Of a stretch of 64,000 nucleotides of DNA, positions 57,814 through 63,741 are shown piece by piece. Positions within the stretch are counted from its first letter, which is position 1; each line of letters opens with the position of its first letter. Origin of the DNA: a virus. The translations under genes and the position numbers were made by a program. The notes beneath the pieces are model-generated. The model saw nothing but the letters and a program-made list of their open reading frames with translations. It was not told where the DNA came from and made no database searches. Location: IMG/VR virus record IMGVR_UViG_3300047053_000004, positions 8,249-72,248 of that record; one strand, written 5' to 3'.

Positions 57814-59070
57814 ATGGCTAACTATTACGTTTCGGGCACTGGCAGAGATTCTAATCCTGGGACAAGTGAAGCGATCGCCTTTCGCACCTTACAAAAAGCC
57901 GCAGACTTAGTGAAAGCAGGGGATACCGTATACATCATGAACGGTACTTACGAACAGCCCAAATATCTTAATACTCCAGTATTGTCGCTCAAACAGAAAA
58001 ACGGTACTCCAGAAAAACCGATCGCCTTTAAAGCTTATTCTGGGCATAAGCCATTGCTTAAATCGAATGGGAACTATCACACTATTCACATTCTCGGAAG
58101 CTCATATATTTTAATTGAGGGGCTAACGCTTTTAGGCTACAACGATTCTATTACTTTGGAGTACGCCCAGAAAGAGAAAACCAATAAAGCTAATACCAAG
58201 ACCAATGGAGGTGGGATAGATATTACTGCTGATGGTAATGTACATTCTCACCATGTGATTATTCGCAACAATACTATCTCGAAGTTTCCAGCCAACGGAA
58301 TTGGGATGAAAGAGGTTGATTATGTCACGATTGAAGGTAACAATGTTTCAGAATGTGCATATTACAGCATATGGGGAACACAGGGTATTACCTGTCTGAA
58401 TGCGTGGAACATGGATGATAACACCACGGATTATAAAATCATTATTCGGGACAATGTTTGTCACCACAACTATCAATATATTCCTTGGTTTCAAACGCCT
58501 GATAGGGTTTCAGAAGGGCATGGAATCATGATTGATTCTAGTGATAGTGCAGGGTTAGATGGGCAGGCTTATAAGGGCAAAACGTTAATTTCTAACAATC
58601 TCTGCTATAAGAATGGCGGGGCAGGAATTGAAGTATTCAAAAGCCACAAAGTGGATGTCATCAACAACACTTGCTATCAAAACTCTAATCACCCAGATTT
58701 AGCAACTGTTGGCGAAATATTTATGAATGGGGCATATGAATCGACAGTGGTAAACAACATTATGTTTGCCAGAAAGAATGCCCCGTCTTATGTTGTCAAC
58801 AAAGGTAGCGTCAAAGGAGATTACAACTTAATCTACAACACAAATAAATTTGATTCAATGACAAATCCAATAGTAGCTAACCCGTTATTTGTTGATGTTG
58901 AATCATATAATTTTACAATTCAAGAAGATAGCGGAGCTTTTGTTCTCAAGTCACAAGACTACGGAAGAAGAACTGTGACAAAAATCGAAGAATACACAAC
59001 AAGAGTATTTGAATCTATTGGCAGGAACCCCAGGCAAAGGTCAATAGATGAGGTTACTGCTTATTTATAA
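57814..59070 (+). CDS. Right-handed parallel beta-helix (pectate-lyase-like, DUF1565-type N-terminus) protein
   Basis: YYVSGTG.DSNPGTS...FRTLQKAA..VKAGDTVYIMNGTY; repeated 'I.NN.....G.GI' coils. Confidence 0.85.
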   Translation: MANYYVSGTGRDSNPGTSEAIAFRTLQKAADLVKAGDTVYIMNGTYEQPKYLNTPVLSLKQKNGTPEKPIAFKAYSGHKPLLKSNGNYHTIHILGSSYILIEGLTLLGYNDSITLEYAQKEKTNKANTKTNGGGIDITADGNVHSHHVIIRNNTISKFPANGIGMKEVDYVTIEGNNVSECAYYSIWGTQGITCLNAWNMDDNTTDYKIIIRDNVCHHNYQYIPWFQTPDRVSEGHGIMIDSSDSAGLDGQAYKGKTLISNNLCYKNGGAGIEVFKSHKVDVINNTCYQNSNHPDLATVGEIFMNGAYESTVVNNIMFARKNAPSYVVNKGSVKGDYNLIYNTNKFDSMTNPIVANPLFVDVESYNFTIQEDSGAFVLKSQDYGRRTVTKIEEYTTRVFESIGRNPRQRSIDEVTAYL

Positions 59071-59097
59071 AAGGAAAATGGCAGGGCGATAAAAATG

Positions 59098-59134
59098 AAA
59101 TTACCCATTTAACGAAATATTTAATGGGTAATTT
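59098..59134. terminator. Bidirectional terminator candidate between convergent genes
   Basis: AAATTACCCATT / AATGGGTAATTT 12-bp inverted repeat. Confidence 0.55.
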
Positions 59135-59165
59135 TGATAGCAAACGTATGGAATACCAAAAGCAA

Positions 59166-59408
59166 TTATTCAGAATTAATCCGATCGCCTATAGTCGCTG
59201 GAAGTAGTCCACACAAAATAACATGATTAGACTCTGCAATAAGTACAGACTTAGTGCGCCTTCCGTATGTAGCATCAACAAGCTGTTGTCTTTCTTTTGC
59301 ATCAGCAATTAACCGTTTAATAGGCGCAGATTCGGGGCTGACAACAGCAATTATTTTGCTTTTCAAAACAAAATTGCCGTGGGCGATGCTAATTAAAGCG
59401 CTGGGCAT
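59166..59408 (-). CDS. remA: RemA/DUF370 family regulator
   Basis: LISIAHGNFV...IIAVVSPESAPIKRLI.DAKER..LVDATYGRRTKSVLI.ES.HVIL..L.P.TI..R closely follows the DUF370 signature. Confidence 0.9.
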   Translation of the reverse strand: MPSALISIAHGNFVLKSKIIAVVSPESAPIKRLIADAKERQQLVDATYGRRTKSVLIAESNHVILCGLLPATIGDRINSE

Positions 59409-61273: not shown

Positions 61274-61883
61274 TAGATGTTTGGGAATTTATCAGAGTTT
61301 TTAAGGATATTGCCCCGTCAGGGTTCTTGTAGAATCCGGCAATCTTATCCGCAGGTCGGACAATAACGCGCTGTTGTGTGGACTGTTTATCCCAAACAAA
61401 ACACGATATTGTTCCATTATCGGTTGACCAACGAGTGCCTGCTTTATTCTTGCGAAAGCAATAGCGGGGATACACTAACACTAACGACGGTGGGTATTCT
61501 TCAAGGAATAAGGCGCGATCACCACAAGGCTCTAAAAAGCTAGTCAGCAAAAATGCCACAACTCCCACCTGCGCCTTTTTATGCGCGTTTATGATAACTG
61601 GCGCGGCGAGATTAGAGTATGGCGGATTAGTCACAACCCAGTCACAATCTGGCAATTTATCCCACGATTGGGATAGTACTGCGTCGTAGTGGTAATCAGC
61701 TGGTTTATTAACATCAATGTCGTTAGTCCAAATTTTGAGATTAGGACAGTATTGAAGGAGGGAGGCGATCGCCCCATGACCCACACAAGGTTCACCGATT
61801 ACGCCAGATAAATTTACATAGCGCAGCATTTCAGTTGTGAACCATGAGGGTGACTCGTAGAAGTCTAGAGAATGTCTAAGCAT
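61266..61883 (-). CDS. Small N6-adenine DNA methyltransferase
   Basis: DFYESP; EPCVGHGAI (motif I); VVTNPPY (motif IV). Confidence 0.8.
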   Translation of the reverse strand: MLRHSLDFYESPSWFTTEMLRYVNLSGVIGEPCVGHGAIASLLQYCPNLKIWTNDIDVNKPADYHYDAVLSQSWDKLPDCDWVVTNPPYSNLAAPVIINAHKKAQVGVVAFLLTSFLEPCGDRALFLEEYPPSLVLVYPRYCFRKNKAGTRWSTDNGTISCFVWDKQSTQQRVIVRPADKIAGFYKNPDGAISLKTLINSQTSNV

Positions 61884-62706
61884 AAGGAAACTGTCTAATC
61901 CTTAAATCTTCAGGGAAATCACACAGATCGCTACCTTTAGAGTCTGATGTGCTAAATCGGTAATTATTAGCCACAACTCCATCGATATATGGCGATGAAT
62001 CAACGGGATTACTGCCTAGCTGTTTTACGAAAACCGGAATATCAGCAAATTGGCATTGTTCGACAAGCGATCGCACCCAATCTATATGGCATGGTCTTGC
62101 TTTTTTCCCGCTTTCACCGCCAGTAATTACCCATTGGAGTGATTTTATCCACTCAGTCAAATCAATTTTTTCAAGCAGGGGTTCGCAACTCAAAAAGTGG
62201 ATTTTTGCTGGGATTTCTACCAGCGCAGGGATGCGATCACCTGCAACTGCTTGGTTTTCAACAGTTGTCCCCACCCAGATATTATCTGGCATCCGTGGCA
62301 AACCCCATTCTTTCATCCACTGCAAACAGCGATCACGCATAATGTGAGGGCGCTTGGTTAATATCTGGAAAGTTTGATTTGGACTAGACCACATGGCATT
62401 TAATATTTCCTCGTGCCAGGTTGGATCAATCCACTCTCCAAAAACGTCTGTCATAGAAGCCACAAAATGTTTTTTGGGCTTCCTTTGGCGTGGCCAACTT
62501 TGGAAGATGTCGCGCTTAAGTATTAAATCTGGAGGTTCCCCAGAGTAAGGGAGCTTGTTGCCGCCAAAAAACGTATTTTGGTTGAGAGCTTCTGCGTAAC
62601 AATTAGCACATCCAGCGCTTATTTTTTGGCAGTGCCAACCACCGCCTTTAACTACAATTATGTTGTCAGTGCAATCAGTCCAGGAAATTGCTGTATCATT
62701 GCTCAT
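61876..62706 (-). CDS. DUF5131 (phage Gp37/Gp68) protein
   Basis: T.ISWTD.T.N...C.KISAGCANCYA...FVASMTDVF...FQILTKRP...NIWVGTTVENQ...FLSCEPLL..WVITGGESG..ARP. Confidence 0.92.
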   Translation of the reverse strand: MSNDTAISWTDCTDNIIVVKGGGWHCQKISAGCANCYAEALNQNTFFGGNKLPYSGEPPDLILKRDIFQSWPRQRKPKKHFVASMTDVFGEWIDPTWHEEILNAMWSSPNQTFQILTKRPHIMRDRCLQWMKEWGLPRMPDNIWVGTTVENQAVAGDRIPALVEIPAKIHFLSCEPLLEKIDLTEWIKSLQWVITGGESGKKARPCHIDWVRSLVEQCQFADIPVFVKQLGSNPVDSSPYIDGVVANNYRFSTSDSKGSDLCDFPEDLRIRQFPYA

Positions 62707-63389
62707 GCGTATATCTCCATTTGCTGCAATTTACCAACAAAGTCTAGTAACTCTGCGTCAGTTAGGAGCGATCGCCCTTGCTTGCCATAATTTTGCTGCA
62801 AGTAGTCTTTGCCCTTGGCATCATCCCACCCCAAATCTTTAATGAGGCGATCGCTTTCTTGGATTAAAGAATCGCGGTTGATTTTAGATCTGGGTGCGAT
62901 TGGAAGGGGCGTCTCGCGCTTTTCCAGCTTTGCTTGGGTATTAGCAATAATTCTTGCCCAATCGGCGCTTGCGTTCCATTCAGCTTTTACTTTTGATTTA
63001 GTGGCAGCGTCGTAAATACTGCAAAATACTGTATTTCTCTTGCCTGCGTAGCAACCAATGATTAGTGGCTTTGATAAATCTTCAACCAAGGCGATCGCCT
63101 GCAAAAAACTTTTACTGAAATTAGTTTCAATCCCACTTCTGATAACATAAGTTTCGCCTGCGGAGATTACAATATCAAGCTTAGTAACGTCCTCGCCCTC
63201 GTACTCCTTGGGAGTTACCCGCAAATCGGATAGATACCCACACAACCCATCAGAATATTCTGGAGTATTTATGTTTGTATCCATGTTGCGGTAATACCAG
63301 CAGTAGGTATTACCTGCTTCTTCGCCGCTACTTACGTAGAGGTAAATTAATTTTGGTAGCTTGCAAATGCCTAGCTTGATTTCTGTCAT
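62703..63389 (-). CDS. Conserved-looking cyanobacterial phage protein with C-terminal helical domain
   Basis: Start reassigned to MTEIKLG (63389); C-terminal LGW....KDYLQQNYGKQGRSLLTDAELLDF. Confidence 0.7.
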   Translation of the reverse strand: MTEIKLGICKLPKLIYLYVSSGEEAGNTYCWYYRNMDTNINTPEYSDGLCGYLSDLRVTPKEYEGEDVTKLDIVISAGETYVIRSGIETNFSKSFLQAIALVEDLSKPLIIGCYAGKRNTVFCSIYDAATKSKVKAEWNASADWARIIANTQAKLEKRETPLPIAPRSKINRDSLIQESDRLIKDLGWDDAKGKDYLQQNYGKQGRSLLTDAELLDFVGKLQQMEIYA

Positions 63390-63444
63390 TGGCTTAATTT
63401 TATAGGGTGGTAGGGACAATAATTGTGCCCCTTCAGTAGATCTA

Positions 63445-63741
63445 TTATCTAGTTCCAGAGCCATGCGACGGCTGATCGGTAGGTGCGCCGTTGTTTGGCG
63501 GTACAAATGGCTCCGGTTGAGTCGTCGAAGTTTTGGGTTTTGGTTTTTTCTTGCAGGCAATACACCTGCCTGGCTTTAATTTCTTTTCTCTGCGCCCTTC
63601 GCCTCTATAAGTCTGCGGCGTAGAATCGCTAGACTCAGATGCTGTCGCTTGACTGGAAAAAGTGCGGTCATTCACTTGACATATGCCCGTGAGAATTGAG
63701 GCAGATATTGTCAAGGCGGACAACGTTGAGATAAACTTCAT
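63445..63741 (-). CDS. Secreted PatX-like peptide with YRGEGRR motif and C-terminal PPNNGAP...HGSGTR extension
   Basis: Hydrophobic signal ending in CQ, Ser/Pro linker, RGEGR at 63592-63606; GGAAG RBS. Confidence 0.6.
   Translation of the reverse strand: MKFISTLSALTISASILTGICQVNDRTFSSQATASESSDSTPQTYRGEGRREKKLKPGRCIACKKKPKPKTSTTQPEPFVPPNNGAPTDQPSHGSGTR

Follow-up and report, generated by a model that had tools for sequence, protein, structure and literature searches.

We analysed a 64,000-nucleotide stretch (the window, bases 8249-72248) of the 82,861-bp IMG/VR virus record IMGVR_UViG_3300047053_000004, and in it the interval 57814-63741, in which an earlier note had seen a functional island serving to manipulate the lifestyle of a filamentous host. 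The island was said to consist of a PatX-like peptide, the regulator RemA, a beta-helix enzyme candidate and a protein with a transmembrane (TM) helix and a GAF domain (TM-GAF). We favour, with moderate confidence, another reading, in which the interval belongs to the flexible arm of accessory ('moron') genes in a long-tailed, temperate phage of a Nostocaceae host, with a complete genome, and is a mosaic of separately acquired genes rather than one island. The solid result of the analysis is one of these genes, whose 80-amino-acid product is, judged by its sequence, a divergent but true member of the RemA family.

Gene order and gene origins in the interval

The four open reading frames (ORFs) on which the island was built are all present: those for the 418-amino-acid beta-helix protein (57814..59070, plus strand), the RemA-like protein (59166..59408, minus strand), the 244-amino-acid TM-GAF candidate (59516..60250, plus strand) and a 98-amino-acid protein (63445..63741, minus strand). 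The interval, however, holds eight genes, and the four highlighted ones make up 43% of it. The four that went unmentioned, which account for 52-55% of its length, encode a Dcm methylase, an N6-methylase-like protein, a DUF5131 protein and a 228- or 285-amino-acid slr1353-like protein.

The arrangement of these genes speaks against a functional island. The strand order is + - + -, and the transcription units number four or more; convergent pairs are formed by the beta-helix and RemA genes and by the GAF and Dcm genes, whereas the RemA and TM-GAF genes diverge. The 98-residue ORF stands in the methylase operon. The origins of the four genes also differ: the beta-helix gene comes from Nostoc, the RemA-like protein sits on a long branch, and for the GAF protein and the peptide no homologues were found.

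The sole relative that we found is a prophage (G033) whose terminase is 74-76% identical and which has the genes for a 309-amino-acid, the 285-amino-acid and the N6-methylase-like proteins. The two contigs of it that were read matched neither the peptide, the GAF protein and the beta-helix protein nor DUF5131 and Dcm, and the only RemA in that genome is the chromosomal one. Because this relative lacks them, the four highlighted genes belong to a flexible pool. Single-protein scans of IMG/VR with RemA, the 244- and 98-residue proteins and the terminase returned no relatives, and a terminase scan of species genomes was likewise negative.

The phage and its host

A direct terminal repeat of 127 bp closes the virus record, which has a rating of complete. 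Its structural genes include those for a portal, a large terminase and a 2634-amino-acid tape measure protein; the nearest cultured relatives of the portal belong to phages of Aphanizomenon, Synechococcus and Planktothrix. Two lifestyle markers are present, a Cro/CI-type helix-turn-helix gene and a gene for a large serine recombinase of 505 amino acids with Resolvase, Recombinase and Zn-ribbon domains (L003:6290-7807, minus strand), which is likely the integrase of this phage. Given these two markers, the phage, which is long-tailed and complete, is also temperate.

Three observations bear on the host. First, just past the end of the window (L002:4248-5483, genome positions 74247-75482) the phage carries an IS4-type DDE transposase that is 98% identical to a copy from Nostocales LEGE 12452 and 91-97% identical to copies from Nostoc and Dendronalium; these Nostocales-like copies point to recent traffic of insertion sequences between phage and host. 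Second, the 82.9 kb contain 131 copies of the HIP1 octamer GCGATCGC, about 1.6 per kb, against 0.6 copies expected, a strong sign of what would be prolonged co-evolution with a HIP1-rich cyanobacterial host. Third, the best homologues of the beta-helix protein are all from Nostoc. Taken together, the transposase identity, the HIP1 count and the beta-helix matches make a filamentous, heterocyst-forming member of the Nostocaceae very probable as the host, so that the earlier note's proposal of such a host is well founded.

A 98-residue protein resembling PatX

The 98-residue ORF, the first gene of a minus-strand operon, scored as coding, its own frame being the best of six. Residues 3-21 of the product are hydrophobic (Kyte-Doolittle 1.72), there is no second such segment, and on the basis of this hydropathy the protein is probably exported. 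The hydrophobic N-terminus, which ends in ICQV, is followed by a Ser/Thr-rich linker, the sequence YRGEGRRE at residues 45-52 and a Lys/Pro-rich tail that ends in HGSGTR. This layout recalls that of PatX (NF047413/PF28278), the heterocyst-inhibiting pre-peptide of filamentous cyanobacteria that carries RG(S/T)GR: small size, a hydrophobic N-terminus resembling a Sec signal, a Ser/Thr/Pro-rich linker and (H/Y)RGxGR(R/K)E are found in both. The phage protein, however, has a central Glu in place of Ser/Thr (its motif, residues 46-50, is RGEGR and not RG(S/T)GR), continues for 48 Lys/Pro-rich residues beyond the motif, and has a phage gene that opens an operon of methylases.

For comparison we collected true PatX proteins, 37 in all, from the genomes of cyanobacteria. 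They share a layout in which a signal peptide with NCEA or NCQA at its end is followed by a linker, the motif (H/Y/V)RGSGR(R/K)E and then 0 to ~25 residues. Natural variants include a protein with an RRGEGR end (L052:1501-1701, minus strand), one with SYRGSGRRELV, and one with HRGSDRRE and HRGSGRRE in tandem (L168). Since members with RRGEGR or with two motifs exist, the resemblance of the phage protein to PatX may exceed chance.

The resemblance was weak when measured with the PatX model NF047413, with which the 98-residue ORF reached 9.8 bits (E 1.3) where the cut-off is 30, in a match confined to profile positions 41-68; true PatX members scored 30-93 bits across positions 1-68, and at E<=10 per genome the model also matched 13 of 14 control genomes that have no PatX. 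With our own hidden Markov model (HMM), built from 25 PatX proteins, the ORF ranked first of 1371 six-frame fragments (domain E 0.029, full E 0.23); its domain score was reached by none of 20,000 shuffled sequences and its full score by 17 of 20,000. Alignment with hhalign gave P 0.0014. When residues 1-58 were compared with 7.7 million clusters in an unbiased search of the ESM Atlas, the top three were PatX, with scores of 0.81-0.82, a range that a third of shuffled proteins also reach. An exhaustive search for homologues of the 98-residue protein found none. Thus, the PatX-like character that the earlier note ascribed to the peptide is real but weak, and membership in the PatX family was not confirmed.

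Could the protein nevertheless be a working mimic of PatX? It would then be exported through Sec, trimmed by the host peptidase PatP or a similar enzyme to (Y)RGEGR, taken up by neighbouring cells and bound by the hood domain of HetR, where it would block DNA binding, so that an infected or lysogenic filament forms fewer heterocysts. The ICQV end of the N-terminus is near the NCEA/NCQA of PatX, the linkers are alike in length and make-up, and the motif, YRGEGRRE against HRGSGRRE, has natural counterparts in SYRGSGRRELV and RRGEGR. The rank and shuffle results of our own HMM, the hhalign value and the three PatX clusters at the head of the ESM Atlas search also favour a mimic. PatX itself has to be exported and processed, and as a free hexapeptide it binds to HetR at 88 nM (PMC12756182).

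Several results stand against such an activity. In the HetR-PatS6 structure the Ser of PatS6 hydrogen-bonds Glu253 of HetR, a residue that also holds both arginines of the peptide, and a Glu at the Ser position should therefore be repelled (PMC4649674). In the same structure the free C-terminal carboxylate of the peptide lies near Arg223 (PMC4649674), whereas in the phage protein 48 residues follow the motif. Neither TCCGGA (DIF1) nor GTAN8TAC (NtcA) occurs between 57 and 64 kb, including the 181-bp spacer 5' of the ORF (63742..63922), which contains two HIP1 sites. A scan of IMG/VR with a Nostocaceae-only PatX alignment and a tblastn search of cultured phages both yielded no PatX. The profile score is below its cut-off and, at a loose threshold, the model also matches PatX-free genomes; the ESM Atlas scores are common among shuffled proteins, and the protein has no homologue by which conservation could be judged. 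In addition, HIP1 sites and repeats inflate the number of RGxGR motifs in this genome; we rejected the six-frame excess of RGxGR (9 against ~2) as a signal because HIP1 sites and a repeated element, which the null ignores, explain most of it. On balance we consider a working mimic unlikely, and the PatX-like layout would more readily reflect chance or remote convergence than a functional HetR inhibitor.

A broader proposal is that a temperate Nostoc phage deploys a secreted PatX-type pre-peptide whose (Y)RGEGR acts on HetR in infected or neighbouring cells and tunes heterocyst differentiation, while the same phage brings its own RemA-type DNA-wrapping regulator. As a whole, and as read from the sequence, we regard this picture as unlikely. 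If it were true, the peptide would, as a viral mimic of a developmental morphogen of bacteria, be the first of its kind, and a case of a virus steering a textbook Turing-type patterning system.

Two further short ORFs of the window carry related motifs. The mini-ORF at 15145-15171 (minus strand) reads M-HRGTGR-L-stop, an exact PatX-derived hexapeptide, of which 0.01 would be expected per random genome of such composition; it lies in an alternative frame within the 3' end of a gene of the baseplate region and is probably due to chance. A 22-codon ORF at 63742-63810 (plus strand; MSSVMRGTGRSLK...) stands back to back with the 98-residue ORF at a CATATG palindrome and contains RGTGR; since a HIP1 site encodes part of this motif, the ORF is most likely a by-product of HIP1. 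We also tried, and rejected, an o-spanin reading of the Pro/Lys-rich 98-residue protein, which lacks a canonical lipobox and whose gene is not close to any lysis genes.

A divergent RemA-family protein

The family assignment of the 80-amino-acid RemA-like (DUF370) DNA-binding regulator is secure. It matched PF04025 with 100.2 bits (E 6.8e-29; cut-off 26), or 99.4 bits in a six-frame search of the genome, and NF003315 with 107.4 bits, above the cut-off of 87; with the strict RemA equivalog model NF046064 it scored 105.9 bits, short of the 140-bit cut-off. It aligned to the solved Geobacillus RemA (7BM2) with E 1e-22 and without gaps over residues 4-77. R50 and R51 of RemA bind DNA (PMC8481266). 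Both arginines, as well as P29, are retained in the phage protein according to the alignment with 7BM2. The identification of RemA in the earlier note is thus borne out.

Compared with RemA of Bacillus subtilis and Geobacillus, the phage protein has equal length, the same fold family and the core motifs VSPESAPIKR and DATYGRRT. It differs at near-invariant positions (N7S, G9A, R18K, R53K, D59E and E71A), and its gene lacks the neighbours yicC, gmk and rpoZ, being flanked instead by the beta-helix and TM-GAF genes. Its identity to any of 2647 homologues is at most 67%. In the tree its branch is very long and falls outside the clade of cyanobacterial proteins, which is well supported; the approximately unbiased (AU) test rejected neither a cyanobacterial origin (p 0.33) nor an origin shared with other viral copies (p 0.36). 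Among 201 genomes of the host order, 188 have RemA, nearly always as one highly conserved copy that scores 126-132 bits with PF04025, against 99-100 bits for the phage protein. Second copies in these genomes numbered three, all unrelated to the phage gene. In one cyanobacterial genome we also noted two RemA-like domains in tandem within one 228-amino-acid open frame (L144/L147, G181:C138:18157-18663).

The substitutions raise the question of whether the phage protein acts on the RemA of the host. It could serve as a poison or modifier subunit, forming mixed rings with the host's single RemA that switch off or redirect the host RemA regulon, rather than as an independent regulator. In favour of this, host RemA is a single, near-invariant copy in 188 of the 201 related genomes, and the phage copy combines a ring-forming core and R50/R51 with changes (N7S, G9A, R18K, D59E, E71A) at near-invariant surface or interface positions. 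R18 and D59 touch across subunits in the solved octamer (PMC8481266), and this contact pair, which sets the octamer, is K18/E59 in the phage copy. The same pair, however, occurs in cellular RemA genes, for one of which (P0014) we saw the canonical yicC-remA-gmk-rpoZ context. Because cellular genes in the usual context carry it, K18/E59 is no speciality of the phage, and we rejected it as a phage-specific interface change or device. The DNA-binding arginines, moreover, are retained, as in an active regulator. A poison subunit is, thus, rather improbable.

By analogy with the solved RemA, the phage protein would form ring oligomers that wrap DNA through R50/R51. In the phage or prophage it may serve in transcription control or DNA architecture, and would either re-tune the host RemA regulon or control phage genes. 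In the papers that we consulted, the cyanobacterial homologue (Asr0105, Ssl2874) owes its name solely to its resemblance to B. subtilis RemA, and we found no function reported for it; for this reason the label 'matrix regulator', as far as our analysis goes, is an extrapolation from B. subtilis. The phage copy offers a handle on what RemA controls in cyanobacteria.

Phage-borne RemA is rare but not unique. We found it on 17 IMG/VR contigs of ~50 kb with phage-type neighbours, and in eight uncultured gut 'Bacteriophage sp.' records. In a viral clade (L004-L020) the gene lies among small early-type genes with PHROG-positive neighbours, beside NrdG-like and terminase-small-like genes. The copies from uncultured phages have the features GNFV and PATI-DR in common with the present one; they form their own clade (100/100), separate from this gene, are 47-55% identical to it, and come from contigs with a G+C content of 44-51%. 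Our literature search found no description of a phage RemA. What is new is thus another phage-borne member of the family, a modest novelty.

The beta-helix protein and the TM-GAF candidate

The 418-residue protein is a right-handed beta-helix protein, with matches to PF13229 (3.6e-13), PF05048 and the Pel9A-like N-terminus PF22842 (29.4 bits; cut-off 25.2). An AlphaFold2 (AF2) model based on 30 homologues had a predicted local distance difference test (pLDDT) of 87; residues 1-377 were modelled with confidence, and the last ~40 residues are disordered. The folds closest to the model were PL9 rhamnogalacturonan/pectate lyases (5OLR, 1RU4), followed by GH136, PL6 lyases and phage tailspikes. With the PL9 lyases (Pel9A, 1RU4; BT4170, 5OLR) the protein has in common a right-handed parallel beta-helix and a Pel9A-like N-terminal cap, yet the identity is just 14-16%. 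Thus, the enzyme candidate named by the earlier note was confirmed at the level of the fold, and the model makes a polysaccharide lyase or depolymerase a probable, though still candidate, assignment.

The closest proteins by sequence form a large Nostoc family (47-59% identity), many members of which have RTX or choice-of-anchor domains. Unlike these Nostoc 'choice-of-anchor Q'/RTX beta-helix proteins, the phage copy lacks a signal peptide as well as RTX and anchor domains, and its disordered 40-residue C-terminus is unique to it. The gene was acquired from this family of secreted lyase-like paralogues, with loss of the export domains. Tailspike depolymerases sit in the tail module, whereas the phage beta-helix gene is far from the tail genes. 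The protein would cut sheath or exopolysaccharide at lysis or entry.

The TM-GAF candidate has a single strong hydrophobic helix at residues 42-60 (hydropathy 2.5), followed by the basic stretch KIKKQERLR and a C-terminal domain of ~170 residues. This order of membrane helix and basic stretch indicates that the C-terminal domain should face the cytoplasm. No match to Pfam, PHROG or NCBIfam was found even at E 10, including the GAF profiles PF01590, PF13185 and PF13492, and sequence searches gave no homologue. A single-sequence AF2 model had a pLDDT of 34 and was unusable. In the ESM Atlas, in contrast, the features of the protein scored 0.92 to GAF clusters and its ten best named matches were all GAF, with only 152-165 features in common; the model of residues ~71-244 gave template-modelling scores of 0.53-0.60 to viral GAF-named clusters (~200 amino acids, 99-100% viral). 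Relative to these phage clusters, with which it has no detectable sequence similarity, the protein adds an N-terminal transmembrane anchor. The C-terminal domain is, according to the model, probably GAF/PAS-like and cytoplasmic. Of the TM-GAF assignment in the earlier note, then, the membrane helix is strong, while the GAF part is a plausible lead from ESM Atlas features and model that no profile or sequence match backs. The divergently encoded, membrane-anchored GAF-like protein could give the neighbouring RemA-like regulator a small-molecule input.

Mosaic or island

The reading as a mosaic has to be weighed against one in which the four genes are a single coordinated host-lifestyle module, through which a filamentous host would be re-programmed in its production of matrix, its patterning of heterocysts and the structure of its sheath. 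Some of our own results pull away from the mosaic. The joint absence of all four genes from one relative also fits gain as a block. The RemA and GAF genes are read in opposite directions out of a single short, AT-rich spacer, as is typical of gene pairs with a functional link; this is the one arrangement in the interval that hints at a functional pair, and it is suggestive. Of the eight residues of YRGEGRRE in the peptide, six are those of the PatX consensus HRGSGRRE, natural PatX-family proteins with an RRGEGR end or two tandem motifs exist, and the unbiased ESM Atlas search placed PatX clusters in its first three ranks. Finally, the GAF call for the 244-residue protein comes from one kind of evidence.

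The coordinated module draws on most of these points: four genes within 6 kb that are all lacking in the sole relative, the divergent RemA/GAF pairing, the PatX clusters as nearest ESM neighbours of the peptide, and a host that is very probably heterocystous. It has to contend with four or more transcription units on alternating strands, with a peptide that is in the methylase operon and not with RemA, and with the unrelated evolutionary origins of the four genes. DNA-modification and unknown genes fill 52-55% of the interval. Neither GAF, a fold that binds ligands of many kinds, nor the beta-helix, which is generic as well, has a specific tie to multicellularity. Cyanobacterial RemA, for its part, is named in the papers that we consulted after the B. 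subtilis protein that it resembles, with no function reported. A coordinated module is, accordingly, decidedly improbable, and we retain the mosaic accessory arm. It is very improbable indeed that the interval is host DNA misjoined to the phage contig, or chromosome flanking a prophage: although the beta-helix and IS4 transposase genes are near Nostoc chromosomal genes, the terminal repeat closes a record rated complete, the interval is internal with phage-type genes on both flanks and with the HIP1 density and codon usage of the rest of the genome, RemA is without its chromosomal neighbours and distant from every host copy, and the methylase, DUF5131 and 285-amino-acid genes belong to phage families or are common to the related prophage.

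The comparison calls for caution, in that functional 'islands' are not to be inferred from proximity in the accessory regions of phages. The temperate phages that infect filamentous, nitrogen-fixing cyanobacteria have received very little study, and their accessory genes may shape the biology of blooms, crusts and symbioses.

The methylation operon and other features

The minus-strand operon runs from 63741 down to 60320 in the order 98-residue ORF, 285-residue ORF (228 residues), DUF5131, methyltransferase-like protein and Dcm, the last four genes overlapping by 4-8 bases. The last gene (60320..61273, minus strand) encodes a C5 cytosine DNA methyltransferase of the Dcm type (PF00145, 8e-24; phrog_116, 2e-34). 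Upstream of it, a gene at 61266..61883 (minus strand), which overlaps both neighbours by eight bases, encodes a DNA methyltransferase-like (N6-methylase-like) protein of 205 amino acids (phrog_799, 2.5e-19), with a homologue of 70% identity in the G033 prophage. The 276-residue DUF5131 protein (61876..62706, minus strand) belongs to the phage Gp37/Gp68 family (PF07505, 6.5e-60; phrog_2045, 4.6e-73).

The next protein has a C-terminus of the slr1353 family (62703..63389, minus strand; NF058667, 6e-12). Its longest ORF spans 62703-63560 and would give 285 amino acids from a TTG start. Because the homologues in the G033 prophage begin at the equivalent of Met58, translation probably starts at that codon, at 63389, giving 228 amino acids; the overlap with the 98-residue ORF therefore disappears. 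The operon would serve to methylate phage DNA against host restriction.

The spacer between the convergent beta-helix and RemA genes (59071..59165) contains, as read from the sequence, a perfect 12-bp inverted repeat, AAATTACCCATT ... AATGGGTAATTT, which is likely a bidirectional terminator. The AT-rich region between the divergent RemA and TM-GAF genes (59409..59515) is 107 bp long. A scan for consensus promoters and terminators gave results at or below chance, with none above chance in this 107-bp spacer, and scans of the interval for tRNA genes and Rfam families gave no match.

Two observations concern the window beyond the interval. For the neighbouring 'FtsK/VirB4-type ATPase' (49710-51395, minus strand), the Pfam P-loop matches were weak and below threshold (nSTAND3, 18.5 bits; APS kinase). 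The NtcA-box pattern GTAN8TAC occurs 16 times in the window against 7.6 expected, a number that none of 100 shuffled sequences reached. Examples are found at 39901-39914, 21315-21328 and 1829-1842, and several copies lie directly 5' of gene starts, that of the terminase gene among them; the excess could mean that phage genes are under nitrogen-status control.

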